From a virus, in IMG/VR virus record IMGVR_UViG_3300048033_001554, positions 20,354 to 84,353 of that record: a DNA stretch of 64,000 nt. One strand, written 5' to 3'. The position numbers and the translations under genes are program-made. The first letter of the stretch is position 1; every line of letters starts with the position of its first letter. Below the pieces are notes generated by a model. The model was not told the DNA's origin and did no database searches. It worked only from the letters and a program-made list of their open reading frames with translations. Of this stretch, positions 8,500 through 61,625 are shown in pieces.

Positions 8500-9414
8500 T
8501 TAAGCCTCCAGCTGGAGAACTGTGAGAGTTACTTGTACGGTTCCTGTTGAACCTGATTTGTTTGTAACTCTGCAAGGAATATTTGTAGTAGGAGTAGATT
8601 CCATGTTATATCCTATTGCACCTGGAGATACAAGTACTGTTTCGGCTCCAGTTGTAATTACTTCAGCAATAACTCCCGCGTCCGGCGCAGGGTCAGATGT
8701 TTCAGCTCTGCCAGCGTCAGCAGTTCTTGATGCGCCGTTTGCATAAATTCTTACCCAAGCTGCTTTATCGGTTTGGATTGATAAAAGACCATAGCCTTTA
8801 AATCCATCGATATCTAAATTTGCAGCAGCACCGTTTGCCAAAGATGAAGTTGTGCCCGCTTTAGCAGATCTTGTCTGCAATGATCCACCACTTAGCAATC
8901 CACCTGTATCTGTTAAATCACTAACATCAGCTGGAATAACTGGTGGTGTATAAGTGAATACGCCGTTTGTATTATTATATGCAATGCTGCCATCACCTGA
9001 AGCGGATCCTTCAGCACCAACACTTAAATCTGTTAATGCAATACCGCCGCCAGACGCTGCGTTTATCCAATCGTAATCTGTACCAGTCCAAGATAAAATC
9101 TGGTTATTTGATGCTGTACTTGTATTTAAATGTGCATCAACATCTGAGTTAAAATATCCAGCTGCGGTATTAGCAAATGTAAATCCGCCATCACCGTCTG
9201 TTGTAAGAACCTGCCCAGTATTTCCATCTGTTATTCCAAGATCTATTAATTCGGCTGGGATTACTGGTTTATCGGTAAGATCGTCATAACTCCCGCTGAA
9301 AGATAAATTGTATAATTCATCAAAATTAGAAACGATTTTAATCATGGCATTTCTTAGCGCATCGCCTGTACCATCGTTTTCGTTTAGGCCATAATTGATA
9401 ACTTGCTTAGCCAT
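8500..9414 (-). CDS. Baseplate/tail-fibre connector-like virion protein with gp9/gp10-type N-terminus
   Basis: MAKQVINYG..NDGTGDALRNAMIKIVSNFDELY N-terminus; GQVLTTDG fibre-type motif; Gly/Thr-rich. Confidence 0.65.
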   Translation of the reverse strand: MAKQVINYGLNENDGTGDALRNAMIKIVSNFDELYNLSFSGSYDDLTDKPVIPAELIDLGITDGNTGQVLTTDGDGGFTFANTAAGYFNSDVDAHLNTSTASNNQILSWTGTDYDWINAASGGGIALTDLSVGAEGSASGDGSIAYNNTNGVFTYTPPVIPADVSDLTDTGGLLSGGSLQTRSAKAGTTSSLANGAAANLDIDGFKGYGLLSIQTDKAAWVRIYANGASRTADAGRAETSDPAPDAGVIAEVITTGAETVLVSPGAIGYNMESTPTTNIPCRVTNKSGSTGTVQVTLTVLQLEA

Positions 9415-9445
9415 GATAGCTCCTGTTTAATTTATAGTTATTTAT

Positions 9446-11761
9446 CTAAGAGTTGTCTACGGTAATATTTATAGAATCTACAGAGTAAATAACACTATCA
9501 GATCTTACCGTTTGATCGCCGACATCTTGGTTTGGACCTACAATGTCTGCACCGCCTACAATATAATCGTCTTTCACTCTTATTGAGAACTTGTGTTTTA
9601 ATGTTGGGCCTACTGAGTTTTTGTACGTGAAGTTGCCGAACATTTTTGTTCCGGCAAGGTGCATAGTATCTTTTAACACTGTTTGATACTTATTAAGTGA
9701 TACAGTAGACTTTAGATCATAAGAATACTCTTGGTAGTAATCACTATCTTGAACTCTTTGGTTACTGTCGTAATATTCAAAAATATTTGTGTCGGGATTC
9801 GTTCTATAACCGTTGATATGTGAAGATCGACTACCCCAGAATCCTGCAGTAATACCCTGCGAATCAACTTGAAGTATACCTTCAGCAACTTTTCTTCCAT
9901 CATCATCAATTAAGTAACCGGTTTCTTCATTCAAATAACCAAAGCCAGAATTTTGTATCGAAACAGCGGCAATTTTACCTTGCGAAAACTCTGTTCTATT
10001 TTTAACAATCGCGTTCTCACCAAACTTTTTAGAAGTATAATCACGTTCAACTGCAATCAAATCATAAGTGTTGCCTTTGTATGTGATAGCATCACCTGCA
10101 CCGGTCTTAAACCCATAATAACTATATGGCCTTACGTAAAGAGCTTGCGCATCATTATCAATTTTGGTAATTAAACCAGACGTTCCTGTAAGTCCTTGAG
10201 ATACAGTATCACCAACTGAGAAACCAGCATTAAAATTATCAACTAATAGCACTTGGTCAAATCTTTCAAATGCTGCCATTTGTTCGTCGATAACAAGAGT
10301 GAACGTATCATTAACATAGTCTTCGCCAGGATTTATATTTTCAAATGATTTAATAGTACCAATATCAAATGGAGTTAAATCAAACGCTTGATTCATTGGC
10401 GTGGCTAATGTTACTGGGCTTGCAGTTCCTGACATTGCTGTTGGGCCTGCAGATGCAGTATTAAAATCTGAAGAATTTAATTGAACATCTTTAAATGGAT
10501 TAATAATATCTGTGATTAGTTCGATGTTTTCAATGTTTATTAATTCTTCAATTTTAGCATGATTAATGTCACCAGTGTTTGCATACAATGGCCCAGGAGA
10601 AGAATCGTTTTTAGGTGAAACACTTAATATGTCTCCCGTCATTGTTGCTATGTCATAAGGCAACAATGTGATATTAGTAGCTCTATCTCTTGTAGAAATA
10701 GCTCTCGTTTTATCAAACTCTTCTCCTGGCTCCATTTTAACGCCAACTGAAGAAGAGTTTTGTCCAATAACAGTACCTTCGTTACCTGCACTATCTCTTA
10801 AAACTTCTAATATTTCAAATTTAAAATCTGAATTATCTAAAATAACAACTTGGTTTGATGTTTGAATTTTAGTGTTTGGAATAGTATATCCAAAACCGCC
10901 ATCTTCTAATATGTACCTAATTGTGCCAGTAAATTCTTCAACTAGCTCAGTGACGATAACTTTACCGCCACCGCCATATTCACTTTCTATTCTAAGTATG
11001 TCGCCAATTTCGTTTCCAACGGTAGCCCATTGTGACTCAGTATCAATTTCCATGCCAGCAACAGATCCATTGAGTTTTCCAAAGTTGACGTCTTGGCCAC
11101 CAAATCTAGCAATAATATCGTCGTACTTTCTAAACTCACCTTTTACATCCACTAAGTAAATAATAGGAGTTAAAGTATTGTTTAAATATACGAAGTTAAT
11201 CTTATCAACAATAGCTTTTGCTTGCGAAATTGTGCCGTAAATATCTTTGCTTAAAAGATCTGCATAAGAGTATTCTGTTTGTCCATCAGGAGAAAAGAAT
11301 CTACCGTTATTAGAAAACATTTGCAAAAATGCACCCGTTCTCCATTTTGAGTCAGACGGCTTGAGCATATTTTTTGCTGGGTATTTAATTTCAACGTCTT
11401 CTTCGTAAAACATTCTAAAGAATAGTTTAATACCACTTTCAGTACCTTTACGTCTATAAAGGTCCATTATGTTTCTAATTACAAATCTTGCAGTTTTATC
11501 GTCTTCAATATTAGGAAGATCAGCCATGTATTTTTTCTTAAAGAAAATAATCATGTCTGAAAGTGTTGTGCCAATATCTCTGTATTCAAACATTCTACGA
11601 GTGTTATAAACACCCATGTTAGATTCGCTTTCAACAAATCTGTAATATTGCTCAACCATGTCAACGAGTTCCGGGCCTTGCTCTCTAAAGTAGGCGGGGA
11701 ACTGATTAGCAATTTTAAATGCTATATCCTTTTCAACTAATGTGACTTGGTTATCAGCCAT
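9446..11761 (-). CDS. gp7: Baseplate wedge initiator gp7-like
   Basis: DLYRRKGTESGIKLFFRMFY and QDSDYYQEYSY..HLAGTKMFG motifs; directly follows gp6. Confidence 0.7.
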   Translation of the reverse strand: MADNQVTLVEKDIAFKIANQFPAYFREQGPELVDMVEQYYRFVESESNMGVYNTRRMFEYRDIGTTLSDMIIFFKKKYMADLPNIEDDKTARFVIRNIMDLYRRKGTESGIKLFFRMFYEEDVEIKYPAKNMLKPSDSKWRTGAFLQMFSNNGRFFSPDGQTEYSYADLLSKDIYGTISQAKAIVDKINFVYLNNTLTPIIYLVDVKGEFRKYDDIIARFGGQDVNFGKLNGSVAGMEIDTESQWATVGNEIGDILRIESEYGGGGKVIVTELVEEFTGTIRYILEDGGFGYTIPNTKIQTSNQVVILDNSDFKFEILEVLRDSAGNEGTVIGQNSSSVGVKMEPGEEFDKTRAISTRDRATNITLLPYDIATMTGDILSVSPKNDSSPGPLYANTGDINHAKIEELINIENIELITDIINPFKDVQLNSSDFNTASAGPTAMSGTASPVTLATPMNQAFDLTPFDIGTIKSFENINPGEDYVNDTFTLVIDEQMAAFERFDQVLLVDNFNAGFSVGDTVSQGLTGTSGLITKIDNDAQALYVRPYSYYGFKTGAGDAITYKGNTYDLIAVERDYTSKKFGENAIVKNRTEFSQGKIAAVSIQNSGFGYLNEETGYLIDDDGRKVAEGILQVDSQGITAGFWGSRSSHINGYRTNPDTNIFEYYDSNQRVQDSDYYQEYSYDLKSTVSLNKYQTVLKDTMHLAGTKMFGNFTYKNSVGPTLKHKFSIRVKDDYIVGGADIVGPNQDVGDQTVRSDSVIYSVDSINITVDNS

Positions 11762-26730: not shown

Positions 26731-27243
26731 TTATTCTGTTCCTGTGCTACCAAAACCACCATTTCGGTCAGTTTTTTGTACTGGTTTTTCTTTTGTTTCA
26801 GTAATTTTAACTCGAAGAGTTTTTTCAATCAAACATTGAGCAATGCGCTCGCCATGTTCAATTGTTGCCATACTGTCTGAAACATTCTCCAACATCATGA
26901 AAGATTCTTCCACATAGTCTGAGTCAATTATACCAACTCCATTCGCCATTGTCAATCCTTTTTTAAGAGCTTGACCAGAACGAATATACATTTTCATTAC
27001 ATGTTTTTCAGGAATATCAAAGATAAGACCTGTTGGCACAAGTACTCGAATGCCTGGCGGTAATTGAAAGGAATTTGGAATTGCGCCAACACCTTTAACA
27101 ACAATAGACATTTCTTTGTTGAAGGCGTTAAAAGATTTTAAACGTTGTCCATTTTGAATACATGCTTTAATATCAAAACAGGCCGATCCATCTGTAGCAT
27201 ACTCAGGTAGCTCTGCTCTATCATTCACTTTATATACGTTCAT
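26731..27243 (-). CDS. dut: Trimeric dUTPase
   Basis: GSACFDI; VPTGL; IRSG; GIIDSDY; ERIAQ; RNGGFGSTG. Confidence 0.95.
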   Translation of the reverse strand: MNVYKVNDRAELPEYATDGSACFDIKACIQNGQRLKSFNAFNKEMSIVVKGVGAIPNSFQLPPGIRVLVPTGLIFDIPEKHVMKMYIRSGQALKKGLTMANGVGIIDSDYVEESFMMLENVSDSMATIEHGERIAQCLIEKTLRVKITETKEKPVQKTDRNGGFGSTGTE

Positions 27244-27721: not shown

Positions 27722-28126
27722 TTATTTTGAAACTCCACCTGTAGTCATCTTATTATGGATTGACTTCAGGTCTTCCTTCGAAAGAGCTTTTAAATAAAGT
27801 TTAGCAACGGTGCGGTTGCATTGATATACATGTTGAATTGCGTCTAGGTCGCCGCTTTTATCAGCCTTAGGCCATTTAGAAAAACGTTTACGTTTACGCA
27901 ATGCTCCACGGTAATATTGAAACTGAGCATCATGGAATAGATGATGTCTCATATTCATTTCGTTTGCATGAAGAACAGTATCTTCAAAGTTTGTGAAACC
28001 TTTATTAACAAGATAAGGTGTGTATTGCTTTTCAATTAAATCGGGAGTTTCATGGCTATGTATGAGGTCTTCCTTTGAGAAAGAAACAGCGTTCATAAAA
28101 TCAAATGGGCTATAGTCCTTCGCCAT
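27722..28126 (-). CDS. gp62: Clamp loader small subunit gp62
   Basis: YTPYLVNKG..DTVLHANEMN; LRKRKRFSKWPK; syntenic with gp44 and regA. Confidence 0.88.
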   Translation of the reverse strand: MAKDYSPFDFMNAVSFSKEDLIHSHETPDLIEKQYTPYLVNKGFTNFEDTVLHANEMNMRHHLFHDAQFQYYRGALRKRKRFSKWPKADKSGDLDAIQHVYQCNRTVAKLYLKALSKEDLKSIHNKMTTGGVSK

Positions 28127-28316
28127 ACTTAACCTCCTCAATAGCTTTTAGCACATCATTCACATCGTCAGCACATTGTTGGCATGCTTTAAGAGTAAGC
28201 AAACCTTCAGCTGTATTTAATTTTACATTAAAAGCAGTCTTTTTGTCAACTCTTTCTTTGCAATAAAAGCATTCAACAGTACGAGAACCGATGAGCTTTT
28301 TCATCCACTCACTCAT
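28110..28316 (-). CDS. Small protein with two CxxC motifs
   Basis: CFYC and CQQC. Confidence 0.6.
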   Translation of the reverse strand: MSEWMKKLIGSRTVECFYCKERVDKKTAFNVKLNTAEGLLTLKACQQCADDVNDVLKAIEEVKYGEGL

Positions 28317-28467
28317 TGTTTTTACCAATTGGATTATCGTAGTAATCAGTCAAGCCTTTACGTTGGCGTTCTTTCTTTTCTTCGATTATCACAGACGATT
28401 GCCAAACGGCGATTGCACCTAAAACTAAGATTGGCAATCCAATCAAGTATTGGATAATAGTTTCCAT
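28309..28467 (-). CDS. Small single-pass membrane protein (52 aa)
   Basis: Translated by hand: METIIQYLIGLPILVLGAIAVWQSSVIIEEKKERQRK...; ATG overlaps the gp44 stop. Confidence 0.55.
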   Translation of the reverse strand: METIIQYLIGLPILVLGAIAVWQSSVIIEEKKERQRKGLTDYYDNPIGKNNE

Positions 28468-29420
28468 TATTGATACTCCGATTCCATCATAACTTCAGTA
28501 AGGAAAGCTACCATGTTAACTTCAAGGTCAGCCACAAAGTTTGCTTTGTACATATAGTCAGCAAGTGTTACAACAAATCCTGGCATTGATTTAAGCTGAA
28601 CTTTGTCTGTTGCCATGTCATAGATACGACGGAACATTTCGTTCATATCTTGGTCAGAGTTAGATGCAACCCACTTACGCATACCAGTAAAGTTTTTTGT
28701 TTTAAGAAGATTGAACAATTCATCCATAGATTCTTGTTTAAGGTTAACAAAGATACCTTCATCAATTTTACCAGAGCCAGCATATGTTTGAAGCTCGGTT
28801 AGTACTCGACGAAAATCTGGGAAGTGGCGTTCAATTACTTTAGCAACTACAGCTTTGTCATATGCTACAGATTCGTTATCAAGTACGTTACATACTCGTT
28901 TAAAGAATTGCATAGCCATTTTAGGACGTTGTGTTGTTTCAATTGTGAAGTCAACTTCAGACAACCGAGAACGAAGTGGTTCAATAATACGATTTTTAAA
29001 ATTACAAGTAAAGATAAAACCACAGTTAGAGGAATATTCTTCAATAAAGTTACGAAGAGCTGGTTGAACAGACGCAGCGTTTAGATAATCAGCTTCATCA
29101 AAGATAACATACTTACGACCACCGGATAGAGACATAGAGGAAGCGTATGTAGAGATTTCATATCGAAGTGTATCGATATTAACATTAAGTGAACCATTCT
29201 TAACGATATAATCGCAACCTAGCTCTTCGAGCATAGCTTTTGCGATTGTAGTTTTACCTACGCCAGGTCCACCAGTAAGAAGGAGGTTAGGAATACTTTC
29301 ATCTTCAACAAACTTTTTGAAAGCAGCCTTTGTTTTTTCAGGAAGGATTGTATCATCAATCTTTTGTGGGCGATACTTTTCGACCCAGAGTACTTCATTT
29401 GCTTTTGCATCAATAGACAT
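28467..29420 (-). CDS. gp44: Clamp loader large subunit gp44 (AAA+)
   Basis: LWVEKYRP; GPGVGKTT; IFDEAD; PLRSR; FPDFRR. Confidence 0.95.
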   Translation of the reverse strand: MSIDAKANEVLWVEKYRPQKIDDTILPEKTKAAFKKFVEDESIPNLLLTGGPGVGKTTIAKAMLEELGCDYIVKNGSLNVNIDTLRYEISTYASSMSLSGGRKYVIFDEADYLNAASVQPALRNFIEEYSSNCGFIFTCNFKNRIIEPLRSRLSEVDFTIETTQRPKMAMQFFKRVCNVLDNESVAYDKAVVAKVIERHFPDFRRVLTELQTYAGSGKIDEGIFVNLKQESMDELFNLLKTKNFTGMRKWVASNSDQDMNEMFRRIYDMATDKVQLKSMPGFVVTLADYMYKANFVADLEVNMVAFLTEVMMESEYQ

Positions 29421-29778: not shown

Positions 29779-30447
29779 TTATCCTTTTTTATAAGTCGAC
29801 TTAGTATCGATAGCAATAAAGTATTTCACATTGCCATCACTGCTTTTAAACTCAGAGATACCCTTCGCGCAAAGAGTAACATTATAGTCCTGAGGTAAAA
29901 GTTTAAGATTATCAGTTTTTACAATAATCTTAAATTCATCAGATGTAGTGCCAATTTCAACACCATAATCATCTGAGTTGCTGTTATTGCTATCAATGGC
30001 TTTAAGGAAGATTTTACCATCTTCACCAACGAAAGCAATCTCACCAAATTGGAGAACGCCGGCTGCTTTGATAACAGACTGCATATCATCCCATGAAACA
30101 TCAACTTCAACATCAGTTGTTGGTAGCTGAATTTCTTTCTTTGGAGCTGCATGGATCATAGAAACATCAGCATAAACATACTTTGTACGCTGTTTACCAT
30201 CTCTAATCATAAAGTATTTATCTTCAAATTCTACATCTGGATCCTTATAAAGGCTAAGGATTGACAAGAAACGAGATAGATCGTAAACACAAGCCTGGGC
30301 TGGAATTTGATCGGGAATTGTTGCTGACGCAACCAATGTTTTTTCTGGTGTTACAGTTTTAAGAACATTACCTTCCTCCATAAGAATGGATTTGTTAATG
30401 GTTGAAAAACTTTTAAGAATCGTAAGAGTACGTTCACTAAATTTCAT
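29779..30447 (-). CDS. gp45: Sliding clamp gp45
   Basis: MKFSERTLTILKSFSTINKSI; VYDLSRFLSILSL; NLKLLPQDYNV. Confidence 0.93.
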   Translation of the reverse strand: MKFSERTLTILKSFSTINKSILMEEGNVLKTVTPEKTLVASATIPDQIPAQACVYDLSRFLSILSLYKDPDVEFEDKYFMIRDGKQRTKYVYADVSMIHAAPKKEIQLPTTDVEVDVSWDDMQSVIKAAGVLQFGEIAFVGEDGKIFLKAIDSNNSNSDDYGVEIGTTSDEFKIIVKTDNLKLLPQDYNVTLCAKGISEFKSSDGNVKYFIAIDTKSTYKKG

Positions 30448-30513: not shown

Positions 30514-31368
30514 CTACTTTTTGTAGGTTTTTTTGCGGCTAGCTTGGTTTGCCGTTGCAGACATTCCAAGCTGTCCCATGTCGGCCAAAGATCCTTTGAA
30601 GATATAAGAACCAATATGATGTAGATTCATCCACGGGCACATCCATACTTGCATCCCAGCTTTACGAGCCCACTTACAAAAGAAATAATCTTCAGACAAG
30701 TAACGCTTTGTTTCTGGATCAATGACGCAGTCAAAGAAAGCCGTAATTTCTCTACTACCATCAAAGTTATCAGTACGAACATGATCTGGCTTATAGCTTA
30801 ATTCAGGATAAGCTTCTTTGAATTTTTCAAGAGTAGCTCGTGGAATAAGCATAAATCCTGTACCTGCTTCAGCTACTTCAAGCGGCTCAGCCACATTAAA
30901 AGATGCTTGCTTTTTAACAGGATTAAATACGTAATCGGCTGTATATTTTTCAAGATCAAAAGGATTATCTTTTCCTTTACCTTGCTGAGCAGCTTGAGAA
31001 ACTTTTTCCCATGCAATTGTTTTCTTAGGATATGGTCCTGTTACGATGTTATACTTATCAGGATCTTGGAGGTTAACTGCCATCAATCCTAAAATATCTC
31101 TTGGATTAAAACCAATGTCTGCATCAATAAACAATAGATGAGTACAATCAGAACGAAGGAATTCATCTACAATATAGTTACGTGCTCGTTGGATCAAGCT
31201 TTCATTAAACAAAAAGTAAAACTGTACTTGAATGCCATTAGCACCAGCCATTAAGGCCAAATCAGTGCAAGCTTTTGTATATGTACCGGCCGCTTGTGCG
31301 CCATACATTGGCGTACCAATAAAGATTTTATGCTTTCTTAGCTCATCGATACTTAATTCGATTTTCAT
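30514..31368 (-). CDS. GT-A fold glycosyltransferase-like protein
   Basis: IFIGTPMYG; ESLIQRARN; LLFIDADI (DxD); GTGFMLI; LSEDYFFC. Confidence 0.7.
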   Translation of the reverse strand: MKIELSIDELRKHKIFIGTPMYGAQAAGTYTKACTDLALMAGANGIQVQFYFLFNESLIQRARNYIVDEFLRSDCTHLLFIDADIGFNPRDILGLMAVNLQDPDKYNIVTGPYPKKTIAWEKVSQAAQQGKGKDNPFDLEKYTADYVFNPVKKQASFNVAEPLEVAEAGTGFMLIPRATLEKFKEAYPELSYKPDHVRTDNFDGSREITAFFDCVIDPETKRYLSEDYFFCKWARKAGMQVWMCPWMNLHHIGSYIFKGSLADMGQLGMSATANQASRKKTYKK

Positions 31369-32009
31369 ATTTCTACTTGCTCCAAATCTGCTTCTGCTCT
31401 TACAATGGCCTGCAGCCGCAGAATATCTGCTGCAACATCATGTTTAGCGTCGTGTGCGTTAAAATTATAATTCCATTTTTCAATGTCTGATACAGGAATG
31501 AATCCGTTGTTGCCGCCAGGAACATTAAAATCAAATTTAGCATCAATAAATGTTCGTGTATCTCTTACCAAGTAATACTTTAAGAAAGAACTAAGTAGAT
31601 CAGCCTTATTAGCATTATGTGCAAGACGATCTAATACTACCGGATCAAACGAATTTGATCTTGACCACCAGTAATCAATCTTACCAGCAGCACGTAGATA
31701 GTTAATTAAACCTTCAATAAATTGCGGTGCTTTCATATCATCACTTGAAGGCTTTAAGTTTCTTCTAAGTTCAGCTGGTTTATCCAACCACCATTGCAAA
31801 TCACTTTGGCTATACTTACATCCATGGTTTTCCATTTGATCTTTAATATCAAACTTAGCATGCTCCATACCAAGAACTAACTCTTTAAAAGAGTATGGGT
31901 TATCACAAAACCTATCCCACTCAAAAGTCGTGTATGCGACATCAATAGCTGGAATTTCACGAGAGCATCCGCCAATAGTTTCAAAATCAAGAATAAAATG
32001 TGTGCTCAT
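31365..32009 (-). CDS. dexA: Exonuclease A (DexA-like, DEDD)
   Basis: FILDFET; WWSRSNSFD; RDTRTFID; HDAKHDVAADILRLQ. Confidence 0.85.
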   Translation of the reverse strand: MSTHFILDFETIGGCSREIPAIDVAYTTFEWDRFCDNPYSFKELVLGMEHAKFDIKDQMENHGCKYSQSDLQWWLDKPAELRRNLKPSSDDMKAPQFIEGLINYLRAAGKIDYWWSRSNSFDPVVLDRLAHNANKADLLSSFLKYYLVRDTRTFIDAKFDFNVPGGNNGFIPVSDIEKWNYNFNAHDAKHDVAADILRLQAIVRAEADLEQVEI

Positions 32010-33211
32010 AAAAATGCCTCTAATGTATTACCGCGTTCAATATAATCTGCCTTCTGTCTATGATTATACTGCAAAATGTAGTCTGTGTCAACCATTACTA
32101 ACTCATTATTCAAATATTTTTTAACTTCAGTTGCCATGTCAGTAGCAGTTTGAACTGGTACGTTTTGACAAATATGGTTAGCAACCTTAGGACCAGCATT
32201 TACGAGTTCAAAATCTTCGGGCAAACCCATGATTGTCATAGCTTCTCGATAGTTAATAAAGCGATCTTCATCTGGATGGGCAAGCATAAGAGGATAGTGG
32301 CCAACAAAAGCACCAATGCGATCCTTAGGAATGGTTACACCACGGCGCATAATACTTTTACCTGATTCGAGTTTTGCATGTTTGTATTTGCATTTCTCTA
32401 CTTCACGATCAAAACCATTTTCAGCCATCCAATCAGCAACTTGCAAATAGCTATATCCTTGTTGTTCAATGTAACTGTAAACACAAGCGCCACGAGCTGA
32501 TGTTGGTTCAATCAAAGCAGCATGTTCTTTATGAGTACGACCACCGTGAATATGTTCTAAGATGAAACGGTAATAAGGATTGTCTGTTGGTTTCTTTTTA
32601 TGGTTAATTACTTCAGTTTGGAAGTTAGATGTAACACCTCGGATTACCTCTTCGATGGGCGTATGAGGCTTGTTATAGTAGTTTAAGAGAGGAGTTTTAG
32701 TACCTTTCCAGAAAAAGTAGAATGATCTCTCGCGTACCTGTGGTGCACCGTGCAATAGAGATTTAGTTCTATATACAGACATTGTATATCCATTTTCTCT
32801 ACCAATTTCTTTTAACTGGGTACGAACTTTAGCTCCAATTTTACCAGCAAACCCCGGTGCATTCTCTCCCCAAAACACTTTTGGTTTATACTCGCCAAGG
32901 ATATATTTAGCGGTTTCTACCATCCACTTGTTGTTTTCATTGTCATCACCATATCCCATAGACATAGTTGATAGACCGGCACATGGGCAAACTGAAGATA
33001 CAACATCAGCTCTTTCATTGGTTGGTGGAGCCATTCCTTTATCTAAAACATAGTAGGGAATTTCGTTATTATAGTAATTTAGGATGTGACTATCATTAGA
33101 AGCAAAAGCCTCATATGACATAAAATGCAATGGCTTAGTGCCAAAAGCATTTTGTGATCCAATTGTTTCACCGCCAATTAGTGGTACAATGGCTGCATGT
33201 GTTATGCTCAT
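32006..33211 (-). CDS. C5 DNA cytosine methyltransferase-like protein with atypical motif I
   Basis: Motif IV CPCAGLS, VI WGENAPG, VIII PQVRERS, IX RFINYREAMTIMGLP, X CQNVPV; motif I reads IVPLIGG. Confidence 0.82.
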   Translation of the reverse strand: MSITHAAIVPLIGGETIGSQNAFGTKPLHFMSYEAFASNDSHILNYYNNEIPYYVLDKGMAPPTNERADVVSSVCPCAGLSTMSMGYGDDNENNKWMVETAKYILGEYKPKVFWGENAPGFAGKIGAKVRTQLKEIGRENGYTMSVYRTKSLLHGAPQVRERSFYFFWKGTKTPLLNYYNKPHTPIEEVIRGVTSNFQTEVINHKKKPTDNPYYRFILEHIHGGRTHKEHAALIEPTSARGACVYSYIEQQGYSYLQVADWMAENGFDREVEKCKYKHAKLESGKSIMRRGVTIPKDRIGAFVGHYPLMLAHPDEDRFINYREAMTIMGLPEDFELVNAGPKVANHICQNVPVQTATDMATEVKKYLNNELVMVDTDYILQYNHRQKADYIERGNTLEAFL

Positions 33212-33675
33212 AATTTACCTTTCAAGCTCGCGTCAGCAACACGCTTTCTCAAATCAGTTGATGAGAAAGAATGTTTTCGTTTATTGTAATGGATCGGACA
33301 AAGACCTTTTGCGGTGTGCTCAGTATCACGGTATTCTTCACCAACAATACGGACATGAGGCTGAATAGTTAGCACCATATCAACAATTTCTTGTTCTGTT
33401 GTAAAAGGAATTACCTCGTCAACAAATCGACAAGCCGATAGTTGAACATATCTTTCAAAGGGAGTTTGAACGGGTTTTTGTTTGCTGTCTGGACGGTCTA
33501 CTGTTGGATCTACTAGCAGACCGCAAATGAGGTAGTCACAAAGGCTTTTAGCTTCTTGTAACATTACAATATGACCTGCATGTAGCAAATCAAAAGTAGA
33601 ACAAGTAAAACCAATTTTAACTTCATCAGCTGGTTTACCCAAACGCTGAGCAATCTCAGAGATATTCGTAAACAT
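33208..33675 (-). CDS. Cytidylyltransferase (TagD/HIGH family)
   Basis: STFDLLHAGH; KPVQTPFER; VDEVIP; RKHSFSSTDLR. Confidence 0.88.
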   Translation of the reverse strand: MFTNISEIAQRLGKPADEVKIGFTCSTFDLLHAGHIVMLQEAKSLCDYLICGLLVDPTVDRPDSKQKPVQTPFERYVQLSACRFVDEVIPFTTEQEIVDMVLTIQPHVRIVGEEYRDTEHTAKGLCPIHYNKRKHSFSSTDLRKRVADASLKGKL

Positions 33676-34693
33676 TATTCATACACTCCATAATAAAATC
33701 TTTATTAGGGTGGTATTTGTACACCCTAGTAATTTCAGCACCAACCAACGCTGACAGCATACCTTTATTTATATCATTTGCTAGCGCCATATATTTAAAA
33801 GACTTAACAACTTTATCCATATCATATTTGTTAATCAATAGACTTGCAATAAATTTAGCAGCATCCAACTCAGTGCAACCAAACACACCACAAATAGGAT
33901 CAATCAGCGTAACGTTGCAATCTTTAAAGAGCATATTTTTAATGCCAAAATCACCGTGAGAAAATGTTCTTTTTAAATCAAACTTATAAAGCTTAAAGGC
34001 ATTATCACGGAAAATCTCATGGCCACCGTGATTATATGCGTTCTCAGCATGCTGTTCAATTCGATGAATATAAGATACGTAGCTTAATTCGTCTTTTACT
34101 TTAAGTGATTTAAGCTTATCCAATTGAGTTTGAATAATGCCAAGCGCCATGTGAATATTATTTTCAAAGTAGTTTTCATCGTTATCAATATAATCCATTG
34201 TAATCGTTTCGCCAACAACACGGTGTACTACTGGAACTTTAACGTTAACAATTTCAGCCTGTTCAAACCATTCACGAGTAGCATGAGCTGCTGAATCTTG
34301 CTTATGGACTACTTTACCATCTGTATAAATTTCAGTACCTGACAAACCACCTTCAAGCTCGCGAATATCTACCTCAAGGAAGTCCTCAGGCATAATACCT
34401 TTATCGTCGATGTAATAAGCTGCCAAAGGTTTATCAAACGAAAGCATATTATATTTTACATTATACTTTTTAAGCCAAGCTACAATGCTTGACTCATATT
34501 TTTCTCGAGCTTCTTCACGAGTATTACATGAAATAGAACCACGAGCTGTGAAGATATCAATCTGCCAACCTTGATCGTATAAGTGATTAAGTTTATTAAT
34601 CAAAACTTCATTTGGTTGAGCAGAATCGAACTTACGACCTTGATGGAACGCTAGTGTGTCGTCAAAGTCAACAACGATTCGTTTATGATACAT
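33656..34693 (-). CDS. HAD phosphatase fused to an APH/choline-kinase-like domain
   Basis: N-terminal VVDFDDTL..FTARG..KP..YYIDDK; C-terminal GGLSG, HGDFGIKNML and LIDP. Confidence 0.8.
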   Translation of the reverse strand: MYHKRIVVDFDDTLAFHQGRKFDSAQPNEVLINKLNHLYDQGWQIDIFTARGSISCNTREEAREKYESSIVAWLKKYNVKYNMLSFDKPLAAYYIDDKGIMPEDFLEVDIRELEGGLSGTEIYTDGKVVHKQDSAAHATREWFEQAEIVNVKVPVVHRVVGETITMDYIDNDENYFENNIHMALGIIQTQLDKLKSLKVKDELSYVSYIHRIEQHAENAYNHGGHEIFRDNAFKLYKFDLKRTFSHGDFGIKNMLFKDCNVTLIDPICGVFGCTELDAAKFIASLLINKYDMDKVVKSFKYMALANDINKGMLSALVGAEITRVYKYHPNKDFIMECMNNVYEYL

Positions 34694-36117
34694 TAGAAAA
34701 ATCCTTCAAGAGTAGATCCAACTTGCTTAGGCTCTTTAATTTCATTTTGTCTTCCATCAACAAGAGTATAAGCCTTTTCAAGTAGTACACTGCCGGGAGT
34801 TGAAACAATAATTTCCCCGCGTTCACGACGTTCTCGAGCACTTGGAAAGTAACTCGAAATCCTATCTATAAAATCTACTTTATCATGTCTTTTACCTTTT
34901 GTCAACACAAAATCTAAGAATTTTGGACCAAGGACTTCAATATCATTAAACTTGTAAATTAGTTCACGGCATGCTTCAGTACGAGCTTTCCATTCCTTAG
35001 GATTATTAGCAATACGGTTCAATTCAGCAGCAAGTTCTTCTTCCTTAGTAGCTTCTGAAATAAGTGGACCATAATATTCTCCCCACTTTTTACCTTCAGG
35101 AGATACAGCGTTTTCAGCAAAGTGACGGCTAATAACAGGTAGAGACAATAGGAATGATTCAATTACTGTATATTCCATGCGGTGGCCATACTCTTTTGGA
35201 TCGCCAAGACGGTAACCACACCATGCAGCCATAGAAGAACCAAGTTCACCCATGCCAAAATCATACTTATAACCATCGTACGCAGTAATTGTAGTACCGG
35301 TCTTTTCTTTCTCTTTACCTGGGAGGTAATGTTCGCCAGCTGAGTTTGTTCCAATGAACCTAATTTTTGGCTGATAAGATTTATGGTATGGAGCTGGATC
35401 TGTTGCAAGAGTTTTAGAATCAGGATCTCCAATAGAAGAAATAGAACGTTCACAACCCATCAAGGTAAGATCCCATTCATTTTTCAAAAATGGTTCAATA
35501 CGGCAAATCATTCCTGGATCTTTAAGTGTTGACATACGACCCATGTACATAAAGTGTTTACGACGTTCTTCAAGGTCAGCACGATATTGATCGTAGTCTC
35601 CTGTACGAACCCAAATAGGATTCTCAAGTAATCTACCTTCAAGGCCAAGATCAGTTGCTAGATAACACTCTTGTGAATACCCTTCAAATGACTGGGTAAT
35701 ACCAATGTCTGCCAAAGCAAACAACTCACCAGCACCGGTTTGGCGATTAATAGTATTTTTAGTAATAGCATGATCGTGTACTACAATAATTGGATCATTA
35801 ATCTCTTCTACAAATTCACGGAATCGATCAATGTATTTCCCATTCTTGCGAGTTGGAAATGAATGCACAATAGCAATATCGCAAGTATTAACCGCATCAA
35901 CCACCGGTTGTACATCTTTTACTTCTTGGTTGCTTTCAACACGAAGCACTTCACCGTGCCATGAAACGTTTTGTGCTCGACCAAATTTTTGTTTGTTATC
36001 AAAATCAATAACCATTGTTTCATGGCCTTGAGATACTAGCCAATCTTCGAAGATATTAGCGCCTTTAGTAACACCACAACCTTCAATGCCTTTTCCAAAG
36101 ATAAAAGCAACCTTCAT
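34693..36117 (-). CDS. a-gt: DNA alpha-glucosyltransferase homologue (T4 a-gt family, GT-B)
   Basis: GKGIEGCGVTK (T4 ARGLEGCGVTK); VNTCDIAIVHS.P; HDH; MGCERS; RMEYTVIE. Confidence 0.85.
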   Translation of the reverse strand: MKVAFIFGKGIEGCGVTKGANIFEDWLVSQGHETMVIDFDNKQKFGRAQNVSWHGEVLRVESNQEVKDVQPVVDAVNTCDIAIVHSFPTRKNGKYIDRFREFVEEINDPIIVVHDHAITKNTINRQTGAGELFALADIGITQSFEGYSQECYLATDLGLEGRLLENPIWVRTGDYDQYRADLEERRKHFMYMGRMSTLKDPGMICRIEPFLKNEWDLTLMGCERSISSIGDPDSKTLATDPAPYHKSYQPKIRFIGTNSAGEHYLPGKEKEKTGTTITAYDGYKYDFGMGELGSSMAAWCGYRLGDPKEYGHRMEYTVIESFLLSLPVISRHFAENAVSPEGKKWGEYYGPLISEATKEEELAAELNRIANNPKEWKARTEACRELIYKFNDIEVLGPKFLDFVLTKGKRHDKVDFIDRISSYFPSARERRERGEIIVSTPGSVLLEKAYTLVDGRQNEIKEPKQVGSTLEGFF

Positions 36118-36121
36118 AATA

Positions 36122-36451
36122 TTATCCTTCTACAAATTGTTCCCATTTGTTTGGCATACCATCGAACAATTCAGCATCCTCGAGAGGTTCTTTTTGTTCA
36201 TTGATGTTTGGCCAAACCTGAGAGTATTTAGTATTTCTTTCCATCCATATAATCTTATCTGGTTCTGGCAAATCTACGTCAGCAACAATAGCACTAACAG
36301 GACATTCAGGAACGCAAACTCCACAGTCAATACATTCATCAGGATTAATTACTAAAGTATCTTCACCTTCATAAAAACAATCAACTGGACATACAGCAAC
36401 GCAATCGGTGTGTTTACACTTAACACAATTATCCGTTACCAGATAAGTCAT
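36122..36451 (-). CDS. fdxA: 7Fe/8Fe ferredoxin, FdxA type
   Basis: [46 protein letters not shown]; GGAGG SD before ATG 36451. Confidence 0.93.
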
Positions 36452-36452
36452 A

Positions 36453-37019
36453 TTATACCTCCAAAAGAGTGATTTGTACACCACTTTCTTTAAACATTAA
36501 AGAACTTTGTTCTTCCCAAATTTCTTGCCAATTACCTTTGTCTGTTTTAGTACTAGGAATTACTACACGCTTAATGCCAGCTTGGATAATGCATTTAGTA
36601 CAAGACGGACAAATAGGTAATCCATAGACATACAATGTAGCATCTTTAACGGCAACACCATTATATAGAGCGTTCATTAATGCATTCATTTCAGCATGGA
36701 TGATACGAGGATATTTTTCCTCCCTACTATTTAGCCTTTCTGGAGTATCCGAAATACCACGAGGAAAGCCATTGTAGCCGGTGGCTAGAATACGTCGTTC
36801 ATCATTAACAATTACAGCACCAATTTTACTTGATGGATCTTTACTCCAACTTGCAATAAGCTCAGCCTGCTCCATGAAACGTCGATCCCATTTAGTAATG
36901 TTATCTTCTACTTCTTTATTCATACGTCGCATGTAGTCTTCGTAAAATTCGTATTCGCCCATGTACTCTTCTTTCTCTTGAAGTTCCATTACATATTGTC
37001 CAATTTTACTCATAATCAT
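36453..37019 (-). CDS. cd: dCMP deaminase
   Basis: [13 protein letters not shown]; GYNGFPRG; HAEMNA; PICPSCTK. Confidence 0.92.
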
Positions 37020-37693
37020 TTTACTAAGTGGAAATGGCGGCTATACACGTGCAGGTTCATTACTTGCCAGATTAGATCACCTTTCGTAAGTTCATAACCG
37101 AGATCTGCTTCATTTAGATTATCAATAGCACGATCCATAAGATGTTGTGCCCAAGCATAATCATTCTTATAGCCAAAGACTACATCATTTGAACGCATTT
37201 GCGATACCATATGCAGTTTACCATCACGAATATAAAACGTTTGAGCGTTGGTACAGATGAAATCAGACTTACCACCTTCATTGAATTCAACCCAGATAGA
37301 TGGACGGTTATAGATCATTTGAGCACGGCGGCTATCTGGATTTGCAATCAATTCATCAATTGCGTTGTAATATTGATTATAAAACTTTGGTGAGTCTACA
37401 AGATGCCCGTAGTTTGAGTTGATATTACCATGTGCATCAGCTGCATATTTCCAGGCGGCAGGCGGTTCTTTGTCTTTGCCATGGATATCGTTAATGTTAG
37501 TACTTTGGCTTTCATACCAAGCCAATTCAGAATCGATATAAGATTGTACTGGAGTACCAAAGATAGCAGGTTCATCAGCAATAAAGCTTGCGCCTAGAAT
37601 TTCAATTGTTTTAGCACCAGTTTTGTCAGTTGTAAATCGTTCAGCTTTAAGTTCATTAATAAAGTACTGACGAATATCAGTTACAGTTTTCAT
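37016..37693 (-). CDS. gp42: dCMP hydroxymethyltransferase (T4 gp42 homologue)
   Basis: DKTGAKTIEILGASFIADEP.IFG; INSNYG; NPDSRR; SDFICTN; MRSNDVVFGYKNDYAW (Asp at the dCMP-specificity position); LHVYSRHF. Confidence 0.92.
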   Translation of the reverse strand: MKTVTDIRQYFINELKAERFTTDKTGAKTIEILGASFIADEPAIFGTPVQSYIDSELAWYESQSTNINDIHGKDKEPPAAWKYAADAHGNINSNYGHLVDSPKFYNQYYNAIDELIANPDSRRAQMIYNRPSIWVEFNEGGKSDFICTNAQTFYIRDGKLHMVSQMRSNDVVFGYKNDYAWAQHLMDRAIDNLNEADLGYELTKGDLIWQVMNLHVYSRHFHLVK

Positions 37694-38019
37694 TCCATTT
37701 CCTCCGGTTTAAAGCGATCATCAACGTCAGTGCCTTGCATTTCGCACATAACTAAAATCATAAGTTGTGTAAGAGCATGGTGTGTATGAGGAAGACCACT
37801 TTCGGGATCAGTATCCTCGCCACTAAACCAAGCCAATAGATGACGTTGAATAGAACCATAGTGACGTGAATAAGGAAACTTATTTAGATCCTTACGCCAA
37901 TTGTTTTCACCATACTTTTGAGCACCAAAAGCATAAACTTGCGAAGCCGCAAGGATTACTTCTGGTGGAACAAGGTTAACAGGTGGTTTGCCATTATCAA
38001 ATTTCATTATTTTCTCCAA
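37690..38019 (-). CDS. DUF5664-like dNTP diphosphohydrolase domain protein
   Basis: KFDNGKPP..LVPP; FGAQKYGENNWRK; RHLLAW..GEDTDPESGLPHTHHA. Confidence 0.8.
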   Translation of the reverse strand: MEKIMKFDNGKPPVNLVPPEVILAASQVYAFGAQKYGENNWRKDLNKFPYSRHYGSIQRHLLAWFSGEDTDPESGLPHTHHALTQLMILVMCEMQGTDVDDRFKPEEME

Positions 38020-38828
38020 GTTGAAATATCTTTAGAATTATCATATATGATTTTAGATTGTTCTGGAGTCATTATAAACTGCTTAAGACAGCTTGTCAAC
38101 GGATAATTCCGCAACTTGTTGCCTTTGTTATTATAAACGTAATTATAGCAAGTTTTATGATTAACACAAAGATAAGCTACAGCAAGATCGGTTTCCTTAT
38201 GAGGAACTCTAATAAAGAAAAGTATGTCAACGCCATCAAGTTTTTTCCATTGAGATTGATCAATCCAAAAACCTTGCTCTCTTTGGTTCAACTGAATTGT
38301 TTTAAGCTCGTAAGTAAGCTCGCCAATCATGCCATCTTTTTTGCTGTCATACCAGTCTTCAGAACGTTCGGCTCCGTAAAACTTTTCTATAGCCATTTCG
38401 CCGATGTCACCAATTTTTACCGCGGTGGTTTCTTTTGGCATTGACGGTGTATCTACAAATCCTACTACAGGAATAGTACCCTTTTCTGTAACTTCAAATT
38501 TCTTACTATAGAGCTTAAACAAACCATTGCGATGCATTAGTAATGTTGGAAACCACGGATATCCACTTGAGTTCTTAGCAATTACATTTTTTACTGTAGA
38601 ATGGCGTTGAATATCAGACCAGCTAGAATATTCTGCGACTATTTTGCCTTTTTGCAAAACTCGCAAAGGCTTATTAGACATTTTCCAGTATTTATCCTGC
38701 CCACGGTGATAGTGAAAAATATTAGAAACTTCCGCCGCGGTCAACGGAAGTTCCAGTTCAAAGTATGCTGTTTCAACAAGATCTTCAAGCATTTTTTGTG
38801 TTCCAGTTTTTTTCAAATTGAGTTTCAA
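38007..38828 (-). CDS. Protein with C-terminal PD-(D/E)xK nuclease-like domain
   Basis: KIGDIGEMAI..DSKKDG..YELKT; true start may be the ATG near 38792. Confidence 0.5.
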   Translation of the reverse strand: MKLNLKKTGTQKMLEDLVETAYFELELPLTAAEVSNIFHYHRGQDKYWKMSNKPLRVLQKGKIVAEYSSWSDIQRHSTVKNVIAKNSSGYPWFPTLLMHRNGLFKLYSKKFEVTEKGTIPVVGFVDTPSMPKETTAVKIGDIGEMAIEKFYGAERSEDWYDSKKDGMIGELTYELKTIQLNQREQGFWIDQSQWKKLDGVDILFFIRVPHKETDLAVAYLCVNHKTCYNYVYNNKGNKLRNYPLTSCLKQFIMTPEQSKIIYDNSKDISTWRK

Positions 38829-39786: not shown

Positions 39787-39814
39787 ATTATACCATACAA
39801 TCAGAGTTTGTCAA
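39787..39814 (-). promoter_or_regulatory. Sigma70-like early promoter
   Basis: TTGACA-16 nt-TATAAT. Confidence 0.65.
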
Positions 39815-40979: not shown

Positions 40980-41008
40980 ATTATAAACAATTTGAGAGTG
41001 AATGTCAA
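40980..41008 (-). promoter_or_regulatory. Sigma70-like early promoter
   Basis: Perfect TTGACA-17 nt-TATAAT followed by TATCTTATCAAAT. Confidence 0.8.
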
Positions 41009-41656: not shown

Positions 41657-41685
41657 ATTATATATCATCTAAAAACGAATGTCAA
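41657..41685 (-). promoter_or_regulatory. Sigma70-like early promoter
   Basis: Perfect TTGACA-17 nt-TATAAT followed by TATCTTATCAAAT. Confidence 0.8.
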
Positions 41686-61595: not shown

Positions 61596-61625
61596 ATTAT
61601 AACATACTTTACGGAGAAATGTCAA
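61596..61625 (-). promoter_or_regulatory. Sigma70-like early promoter
   Basis: TTGACA-18 nt-TATAAT. Confidence 0.65.

Follow-up and report, generated by a model that had tools for sequence, protein, structure and literature searches.

A predicted pathway for cytosine hydroxymethylation and glycosylation with a phage-made sugar donor in an uncultured marine T4-like phage

The locus considered here is a run of ten genes on the minus strand, at positions 30514-38019, of a 64,000-nucleotide stretch of viral DNA (referred to as the window; IMG/VR record IMGVR_UViG_3300048033_001554), and the closest described systems are those in which enzymes for the synthesis of a sugar donor accompany the modification of cytosine. 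In contig 53 (subclass III), as described by Pyle, Lund, O'Toole and Saleh (bioRxiv 10.1101/2023.12.21.572611), each member of a trio made up of a cytidylyltransferase, a GT-B glycosyltransferase (GT) and a HAD-APH fusion was required and the trio sufficed, and the products obtained in E. coli, at 449 and 641 atomic mass units (amu), were read as mono- and di-heptosyl-5-hydroxymethylcytosine (5hmC). The same preprint reports metagenomic GT-B enzymes near thymidylate synthase (TS) homologues and APH phosphotransferases. In phages RB69, DLP3 and HY126, as described by Lee et al. (NAR 2026, PMC13326640), AfhE, a fusion of an APH kinase and an NTP_transferase, and AfhF, a 1xpj-like HAD protein, convert arabinose 5-phosphate to UDP-arabinose by way of the 1,5-bisphosphate.

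The window comes from a viral contig of 84 kb, with a completeness rating of approximately 39%, of an uncultured marine T4-like phage. The clamp loader of the contig is nearest to that of Methylophilales phage Melnitz (54.5% identity) and then to those of other T4-like phages, including cyanophages, and a megablast search with the locus against 50,697 phage records gave no near-identical DNA in cultured phages. The gene names used here are from Pfam, PHROG and NCBIfam scans and nearly all of them agree with the labels given in an earlier note on this DNA, which had also claimed a minus-strand run beside the sliding clamp and clamp loader. All ten open reading frames (ORFs) are indeed present, each abutting or overlapping its neighbor, and the clamp and clamp-loader genes lie directly downstream. 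In the direction of transcription the genes are as follows.

37690-38019, minus strand: DUF5664/PF18909 protein (1.3e-29); likely true start ATG at 38007
37016-37693, minus strand: TS homologue, gp42-type dCMP hydroxymethylase (PF00303, 3.5e-15; 50% identity to T4 gp42)
36453-37019, minus strand: dCMP deaminase, analogue of T4 cd (PF00383, 7e-24)
36122-36484, minus strand: FdxA-type 7Fe ferredoxin (NF045490, 3.5e-44); likely true start ATG at 36451
34693-36117, minus strand: a-gt homologue, GT-B (PF11440, 5.6e-7, over the cut-off); tail STLEGFF
33656-34693, minus strand: fusion of a HAD phosphatase and an APH/choline-kinase-fold protein, 345 amino acids (aa) (TIGR01689, 1.8e-12; PDB 9iqw and 1xpj)
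33208-33675, minus strand: cytidylyltransferase-fold (HxGH) nucleotidyltransferase (PF01467, 1e-12; rfaE_dom_II, 9e-21, below the cut-off)
32006-33211, minus strand: C5-methyltransferase (MTase)-like enzyme (PF00145, 1.9e-19); tail NTLEAFL
31365-32009, minus strand: DexA-like 3'-5' exonuclease (PF16473, 4e-10; phrog_255)
30514-31368, minus strand: GT-A-like protein, 284 aa (phrog_1574, 7e-59; Pfam GT matches sub-threshold); no clamp tail
29779-30447, minus strand: gp45-like sliding clamp, directly downstream of the gene run
28467-29420 and 27722-28141, downstream of the clamp: clamp-loader subunits, gp44-like and gp62-like

We consider it probable that this is an early operon for the pre-replicative replacement of cytosine, followed by glycosylation of the new base with an activated sugar that the phage makes itself. 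In the proposed pathway the DUF5664 protein would act as a pyrophosphohydrolase that converts dCTP to dCMP, and the gp42-type enzyme would convert dCMP to 5-hydroxymethyl-dCMP (hmdCMP), which after phosphorylation would be incorporated by the phage polymerase. Judging by fold, motifs and described analogues, the APH-like kinase half of the fusion protein would phosphorylate the anomeric hydroxyl of a host sugar phosphate to yield a 1,omega-bisphosphate, the HAD half would strip the distal phosphate, and the cytidylyltransferase-fold enzyme would form an NDP-sugar from the sugar-1-phosphate and an NTP. The a-gt-like GT-B enzyme would then link this sugar to 5hmC at its hydroxyl in duplex DNA, while the GT-A enzyme, where present, may attach a second sugar. 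By analogy, the adduct may have an anti-restriction and anti-CRISPR role. The earlier claim that the phage makes its own NDP donor and places an adduct other than glucose on hmC is thereby retained as the best reading of the locus, and a plausible one, although it is not new in kind, and the novelty that was claimed beyond the T4 pathway is reduced by Pyle et al. (2023) and by the work on RB69 and DLP3 (NAR 2026).

The base at the start of this pathway is indicated by the TS homologue, which is 50% identical to T4 gp42 (E 9e-79), in line with its earlier designation as a gp42 dCMP hydroxymethylase. When aligned with E. coli ThyA, T4 gp42 and RB69 gp48 it has D143 (L in ThyA), C146, D169 and D177 (N in ThyA), the hmC signature of T4 gp42, and RB69 gp48 has N169 instead. 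The same signature is found in the TS of all 37 homologues in the first set of related loci and of all 34 in the second (both sets are described below). As set out by Lee et al. (NAR 2026, PMC13326640), specificity for dCMP is due to N177D, non-methyl products are seen where position 143, at which water gains access, is acidic, and D169N is the mark of 5-hydroxy-dCMP synthases. Since D169 is kept and the signature is identical to that of T4 gp42, the sequence strongly supports a gp42-type 5hmdCMP synthase, and we take the base to be 5hmC and not 5-hydroxycytosine (5hoC). A reading of the RB69 type, with 5-hydroxycytosine and arabinose, was rejected because D169 is retained and no SIS isomerase was found in genomes G000-G003, which include the complete 170.7-kb relative G001. 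A TET-dependent origin of 5hmC was also set aside, as no match to Tet_JBP (PF12851) was obtained in the same genomes, although this is weak since the control genomes were silent too. Among G000-G003, ThyX was found in G002 only.

The DUF5664 protein is a confident member of its family, with a profile score of 102.5 bits against a cut-off of 27. It has no similarity to T4 gp56, and its identification as a gp56-like dCTPase was dropped for that reason. Characterized DUF5664-family members are described as hydrolyzing dNTPs to dNMPs with a preference for dATP, dGTP and dUTP (PMC12884076). The place of the gene before the TS gene would fit a dCTPase that is an analogue, and not a relative, of T4 gp56, as would the MazG- or PRA-PH-type proteins that are found near the TS gene in two relatives lacking DUF5664 (L095 and L080).

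The enzymes that we propose for donor synthesis are the HAD-kinase fusion and the nucleotidyltransferase. The 345-aa HAD-kinase has no Pfam match, and its residues 4-113 match the HAD phosphatases PDB 9iqw and 1xpj as well as TIGR01689 (1.8e-12). In an AlphaFold2 (AF2) model built on 23 homologues, with a predicted local distance difference test (pLDDT) value of 88.4, residues ~120-345 match the fold of APH(3'), APH(2''), choline kinase and fructosamine-3-kinase. The HAD motifs DxDxT, T49, K88 and DD are invariant in all 23 aligned homologues, and the same is true of K131, HGDxxxxN and D265 in the kinase half. From sequence and model, the product of 34693-33656 is predicted to be a bifunctional enzyme consisting of a HAD phosphatase (residues 1-~115) and an APH-like sugar kinase (residues ~120-345), with 30% identity between its HAD half and RB69 gp51 (E 8e-11). 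The nucleotidyltransferase keeps the HxGH motif and a C-terminal RxxxxSST-type motif and would be an NDP-sugar pyrophosphorylase.

Whether these enzymes belong with the glycosyltransferase can be judged from gene linkage in related phages. IMG/VR was scanned once with the GT and once with a HAD-kinase profile, which gave 98 loci, and the counts listed here are from the 60 loci with distinct HAD-kinase DNA and include only those with sufficient flank for the gene in question.

Nucleotidyltransferase: 52/52 loci
MTase-like enzyme: 31/31 loci
TS homologue: 31/32 loci
A GT-B enzyme: 27/27 loci (13 a-gt-like, 14 X/Y family)
dCMP deaminase: 25/32 loci
DUF5664 protein: 16/32 loci
Ferredoxin: 4/32 loci
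DexA: 14/22 loci
GT-A enzyme: 11/19 loci

A core set of five genes travels together, namely those for the gp42-type hydroxymethylase, the a-gt-like GT-B enzyme, the HAD-kinase, the nucleotidyltransferase and the MTase-like enzyme. The coupling of the a-gt homologue to a kinase/phosphatase and a nucleotidyltransferase that had been suggested for this locus is upheld by the kept catalytic motifs and by the linkage to GT-B genes in relatives, while the wider gene set that was named with it does not hold together in the same way, as ferredoxin, DexA and GT-A genes are present in only 4/32, 14/22 and 11/19 loci. Membership of the latter three in the pathway is unsupported. DexA is a facultative neighbor, and so is the dCMP deaminase. 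The FdxA ferredoxin is probably outside of it, and its assignment as a redox partner of the TS homologue was dropped because it is found in so few loci. The GT-A protein has an AF2 model (pLDDT 67) that matches GT-A glycosyltransferases and a D82-A-D84 motif that is invariant in 15/15 aligned homologues; it is facultative and is a candidate for transfer of a second sugar.

The two GT-B families that occur in these loci are unrelated to each other. The X/Y enzyme is 420 aa in size and its gene is located either upstream of the HAD-kinase gene or between those for the nucleotidyltransferase and the MTase-like enzyme. Three of the four X/Y members tested have no Pfam match, and that of the fourth (from L080) is a weak, sub-threshold one to a glycosyltransferase. 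Replacement of one GT family by the other around a constant pair of donor genes is more telling than the conserved gene order. Analogous sets occur in two distant lineages, one being Bacillus phage G (see below) and the other a gut phage fragment (MT837767.1) that contains genes for a TS, a split X/Y GT, a nucleotidyltransferase and a HAD-kinase, together with a thymidylate-kinase-like gene. Among cultured phages, Pseudoalteromonas phage vB_Psh_XG4 has genes for a TS, a HAD protein, an X-family GT and an MTase-like enzyme.

The slot between the TS and GT genes varies among the loci and can hold a weakly matching class-I-aldolase-like protein, a GNAT protein with DUF6552, or an HD-domain protein. 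In one lineage a truncated gene resembling UDP-glucose/GDP-mannose dehydrogenases follows the MTase-like gene and a second nucleotidyltransferase gene precedes that of TS. These variable-slot and extra genes may serve to tailor the sugar. In addition, 12 of the 60 loci have a protein of 305-316 aa between the HAD-kinase and the nucleotidyltransferase, the copies of which are 41-50% identical and have no Pfam match, and this insert is a candidate for an extra step of donor synthesis. Examples are located as follows.

L004, 8913-9713: variable-slot or extra gene
L029, 9085-9976: variable-slot or extra gene
L080, 6572-7321: variable-slot or extra gene
L011, 14092-14910 and 8357-8764: variable-slot or extra genes
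L020, 12431-13348: 305-316-aa insert
L080, 10011-10928: 305-316-aa insert
L066, 2386-3336: 305-316-aa insert

The glycosyltransferase itself bears on the nature of the donor. The a-gt homologue (TRANSFERASES) matches T4 AGT directly over residues 1-146 only (1xv5, 1.5e-10), and the PF11440 match, at 29.4 bits against a cut-off of 25, covers residues 14-146. Its relatedness to full-length T4 AGT is seen only by way of two proteins of Bacillus phage G, gp306 and gp313, with 24% identity to the a-gt homologue over its full length and 22-24% to T4 AGT. In GT-B enzymes the donor binds in the C-terminal half, and the divergence of this half in the a-gt homologue fits a donor other than UDP-glucose.

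A rival explanation is that the phage carries out plain T4-like glucosylation, in which the a-gt homologue uses host UDP-glucose and the HAD-kinase and nucleotidyltransferase serve the GT-A enzyme, the glycans of the virion or host envelope, or host metabolism. The N-terminal domain of the a-gt homologue is approximately 28-30% identical to T4 AGT, as this explanation would have it, and in cyanomyophages homologues of the HAD and cytidylyltransferase proteins are encoded next to carbohydrate genes, at a distance from any TS homologue. The nucleotidyltransferase is also present in Vibrio phage Va1 and Acinetobacter phage Ab1-TPeters, where neither a GT nor a TS is annotated close to it, although these contexts are uninformative. 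It is, however, difficult to reconcile with the overlap of the HAD-kinase and nucleotidyltransferase genes with the GT gene in one promoter-defined unit, with the retention of the donor genes beside a DNA-type GT-B in 27/27 loci despite the swap of GT family, or with a donor-binding C-terminal half that shows no direct similarity to T4 AGT. Contig 53, for its part, needed all three enzymes, as described by Pyle et al. We therefore regard plain glucosylation as improbable.

A second rival concerns the donor itself, which could be an NDP-polyol or phospho-alcohol of the CDP-glycerol, CDP-ribitol or CDP-ethanolamine type, so that the adduct would be a polyol or be linked through a phosphodiester and would not be a glycoside. 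The best solved relatives of the nucleotidyltransferase are indeed ethanolamine-phosphate and glycerol-3-phosphate cytidylyltransferases, with a TIGR01518 (TagD) match at 3.5e-13, and phosphotransferases of the TagF type have a GT-B-like fold. On the other hand, glycerol-3-phosphate or phosphoethanolamine would need neither an anomeric-type kinase nor a distal phosphatase, the GT belongs to the glycosyl-transfer family of T4 AGT, and the sole tested system of like architecture gave heptose according to the description of Pyle et al. Such a donor seems improbable.

Several points nevertheless weigh against the proposed pathway of hydroxymethylation and glycosylation with a phage-made NDP-sugar. 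The steps beyond the TS assignment are ones that we infer, and the comparison with contig 53 is one of described architecture. Among solved structures the nucleotidyltransferase is nearest to phospho-alcohol cytidylyltransferases (ECT, 6e-20; TagD, 3e-13) and not to the heptose enzyme, and its top NCBIfam match, the heptose-1-phosphate adenylyltransferase domain rfaE_dom_II, reaches 74 bits against a cut-off of 181.5. For the HAD half, the substrate of the characterized relatives is a pentose 5-phosphate, as described by Lee et al. (NAR 2026, PMC13326640), and homologues of the HAD and nucleotidyltransferase proteins are also found in cyanophages beside other sugar genes. The a-gt homologue has no direct alignment with T4 AGT beyond residue 146. 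The linked loci are from related T4-like phages, which makes the conserved order weak as evidence in that it is not independent. A search of G000-G003 for a SIS-type isomerase (GmhA or KdsD) gave none, so the sugar phosphate must come from the host. Searches of the same genomes with T4 gp1 (run without a positive control) and with PF02223 gave no dNMP kinase, so that neither in the contig nor in G001 was a gp1- or Tmk-type kinase found for the conversion of hmdCMP to hmdCTP. The earlier description of the locus as self-contained is not sustained, as neither a sugar-phosphate isomerase nor a gp1-/Tmk-type dNMP kinase was found in the contig or the complete relative.

The identity of the sugar can be stated only tentatively, with a heptose or pentose as the likeliest outcome taken together. 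Heptose is a possible choice by analogy with contig 53, a pentose (arabinose or ribose) is suggested by the AfhF-like HAD half and is slightly less favored, and some other sugar is as good a candidate as heptose.

The enzyme of this locus with the least obvious function is the METHYLTRANSFERASE-like enzyme (32006-33211), referred to here as MTase-like, which is over the PF00145 cut-off from residue 67 onward. Across 46 homologues with 24-91% identity, motifs IV (CPC), VI (GENA), VIII (QVRER) and IX are kept, as is the Asn of motif X. This would suit an ordinary S-adenosylmethionine (SAM)-dependent C5 DNA methyltransferase that acts on residual unmodified cytosines or on a host-mimicking motif and whose place in the cluster is a matter of synteny. 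The existence of the gene in cyanophage S-TIM5 with no HAD-kinase or nucleotidyltransferase homologue, and the fusion of one distant member to a CXXC zinc finger, point in the same direction. However, motif I reads IVPLIGG where E. coli Dcm has LFAGIGG, such that the first glycine of FxGxG is replaced, the acids of motifs II and III are not conserved, and motif X is QN instead of GN. In a profile search of 1.84 billion representatives there were 436 clusters at E 1e-30 or better, and P-L-x-G-G is present near the N-terminus in at least 131 of the best 150 family representatives, for which reason the substitution is the mark of an old, selected family and not of decay. More than 2,300 homologues were obtained at E 1e-5 in a metagenome search.

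The company that the MTase-like enzyme keeps also argues against an ordinary methyltransferase. In a second set, consisting of 80 loci retrieved with distant family members, an X/Y GT is present in 68, a stand-alone HAD protein in 50 and a 507-aa AfhE-like fusion of NTP_transferase and APH kinase in 47. The enzyme is thus linked to GT-B in 68/80 loci of a distant clade that has a different donor module, and because these loci have an X/Y GT and a TS with the gp42 signature, it appears to travel with hmC glycosylation whichever donor module is used. Every carrier examined has a dCMP-specific (N177D) TS, nearly always together with a DNA glycosyltransferase, so C5 should be occupied already. This extends to S-TIM5 (L105), the TS of which has N177D and D169 but Cys at position 143 and would suit a dCMP-modifying enzyme; the TS and MTase-like genes are approximately 2.4 kb apart, and the MTase-like gene, having no HAD-kinase or nucleotidyltransferase homologue for company there, is not tied to the donor genes.

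L105 (S-TIM5), 5775-6611: TS gene
L105 (S-TIM5), 8995-10212: MTase-like gene

We consider an ordinary C5-methyltransferase to be doubtful, if still a serious contender. C5-methyltransferases lacking SAM can exchange or remove C5 substituents in vitro, and on this basis we put forward a further reading that is rather unlikely. Herein the P-L-x-G-G family would be a new clamp-tethered class that keeps the machinery for covalent attack at C6, does not use SAM canonically and acts on hmC or glycosyl-hmC behind the fork, for example by exchange or extension of the C5 substituent, to give an undescribed cytosine derivative in abundant ocean phages. The earlier proposal that the adduct is further modified by a methyltransferase loses its footing, in that the SAM motif I is replaced and nothing shows the MTase-like enzyme modifying the adduct. 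A literature search on what a C5-MTase-like gene does next to TS-type hmC enzymes surfaced only the preprint of Pyle et al. As to the architecture of the family, larger members also exist (P0224, P0179, P0160, P0196), one of them, of 598 aa, having the C-terminal CXXC zinc finger mentioned above and the others, of 653, 768 and 1462 aa, having an extension with no Pfam match.

Both the MTase-like enzyme and the glycosyltransferase have a feature that may relate them to the replisome. Among the 264 ORFs of at least 50 aa in the contig, only these two end in a clamp-type C-terminal motif (NTLEAFL and STLEGFF, respectively). The motif recurs in MTase-like, a-gt-like and X-family GT homologues, and those of the DexA, GT-A, kinase and nucleotidyltransferase proteins lack it. 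Similar C-termini are SLEDFFGQV, in the family-B DNA polymerase of relatives G001 and G003, and SLDFLFG, in T4 gp43. As both enzymes end in a peptide that is borne by the polymerase C-terminus of related phages, we infer that they may ride the sliding clamp encoded by the adjoining gene and act on newly copied DNA. Clamp-binding C-terminal peptides are also carried by gp33 and gp55, and a parallel in animals is DNMT1-PCNA. Prediction of a complex between the clamp and GT residues 420-474 gave a median score of 0.54, compared with 0.00 for the best of three controls. Of 80 solved complexes 58 reached the mark used, as did 2 of 110 mismatched pairs, but passes with a score of 0.60 or under came from only 7 of the 80 and from both of the mismatches that passed. 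At least 63% of the contacts agree among the runs, and the pLDDT of the partner is at least 42. Binding of the GT tail to the clamp is thus weakly predicted, and the pass may reflect memory of a similar solved complex.

The timing of expression is suggested by the promoters. In the window there are seven perfect TTGACA-N16-18-TATAAT sites, when shuffling would give 0.09, and every one of them is on the minus strand. These look like a set of strong early promoters for host sigma-70.

26927-26955, minus strand: perfect sigma-70 site
32063-32091, minus strand: perfect TTGACA-N17-TATAAT promoter that precedes DexA and GT-A and lies within the 3' end of the MTase-like gene
38071-38099, minus strand: perfect TTGACA-N17-TATAAT promoter ahead of the DUF5664 gene
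39787-39814, minus strand: perfect sigma-70 site
40980-41008, minus strand: perfect sigma-70 site
41657-41685, minus strand: perfect sigma-70 site
61596-61625, minus strand: perfect sigma-70 site

Because perfect promoters precede the DUF5664 gene and DexA, the run does not look like one transcription unit. The eight genes from DUF5664 to the MTase-like enzyme look like one early unit and those for DexA and GT-A like a second. Next to the first of these units is an ORF of 273 aa (38007-38828) with a TTG start, which has no family match and is conserved in no related locus, and within it, at 38754-38725, is a GC-rich 13-bp hairpin followed by a T-run. This ORF may be no gene, and the stretch with the hairpin may be where an upstream transcription unit ends.

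If the proposed pathway is correct, marine T4-like phages of a large and abundant group cover their DNA with a sugar that is not glucose and that they supply themselves, which would affect the sequencing of the DNA of these phages as well as its targeting by restriction, CRISPR and type IV systems, and would provide new glycosyltransferases and donor enzymes for the labelling of 5hmC. The polymerase-type tail shared by two of the enzymes suggests a physical coupling of DNA modification with the replisome. The system represents a natural experiment in pathway evolution, in that the hydroxymethylase and the MTase-like enzyme stay constant while two GT families and two donor architectures are exchanged around them, and the MTase-like family is the part that is likeliest to hold new chemistry.

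In comparison with T4, the window shares the gp42 active-site signature, the dCMP deaminase and the N-terminus of an AGT-family GT, as well as the location of the cluster beside the clamp and clamp-loader genes, a-gt of T4 being near genes 45, 44 and 62. T4 has no donor-synthesis genes and relies on host UDP-glucose, whereas the window adds the kinase/phosphatase, the nucleotidyltransferase and the C5-MTase-like enzyme. Where T4 has gp56 and gp1, the window has DUF5664 in place of gp56 and no gp1 was detected. The tails STLEGFF and NTLEAFL are similar to the clamp peptides of T4 and RB69 gp43 but are on DNA-modifying enzymes, with binding being predicted, and neither AGT nor BGT of T4 has a C-terminal tail of the clamp type, unlike the GT of the window.

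The Afh system of RB69, DLP3 and HY126, as far as it is described, has in common with the window the logic of sugar phosphate to 1,omega-bisphosphate to sugar-1-phosphate to NDP-sugar, a 1xpj-type HAD protein and an APH-type kinase. It differs in that the base is 5hoC (RB69 D169N) rather than 5hmC, the kinase is fused to the nucleotidyltransferase rather than to the HAD protein, and the nucleotidyltransferase is RmlA/LicC-like rather than of the HxGH cytidylyltransferase fold; no arabinose-5-phosphate isomerase was found in G000-G003. A sister clade of the phages that bear the MTase-like gene has the AfhE-like NTP_transferase-kinase fusion and a stand-alone HAD protein. Bacillus phage G, in the region gp301-gp319, also has two a-gt-like genes, a nucleotidyltransferase, a HAD protein, a protein with the APH motif (HGD...N...D), an MTase-like gene (24% identity), a dCMP deaminase and a TS with the gp42 signature. 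It differs in being a jumbo phage with a Gram-positive host, an RmlA-like nucleotidyltransferase and unfused genes, and nothing published on the chemistry of its cluster came up, although no search was aimed at the DNA of phage G, S-TIM5 or XG4.

The system nearest in its donor module is contig 53, which by its described architecture has the same trio for donor synthesis and transfer acting on 5hmC. In contig 53, however, 5hmC is described as arising post-replicatively at specific motifs by means of a C5-methyltransferase and a TET-like dioxygenase, whereas a gp42-type enzyme in the window would replace every cytosine pre-replicatively, and the GT of contig 53 is described as T4-beta-GT-like whereas that of the window is T4-alpha-GT-like. 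This locus is set apart in that the trio is joined to pre-replicative, genome-wide hmC, that the transferase is of the alpha-GT family, and that the conserved P-L-x-G-G enzyme and the GT each have a polymerase-type clamp tail.

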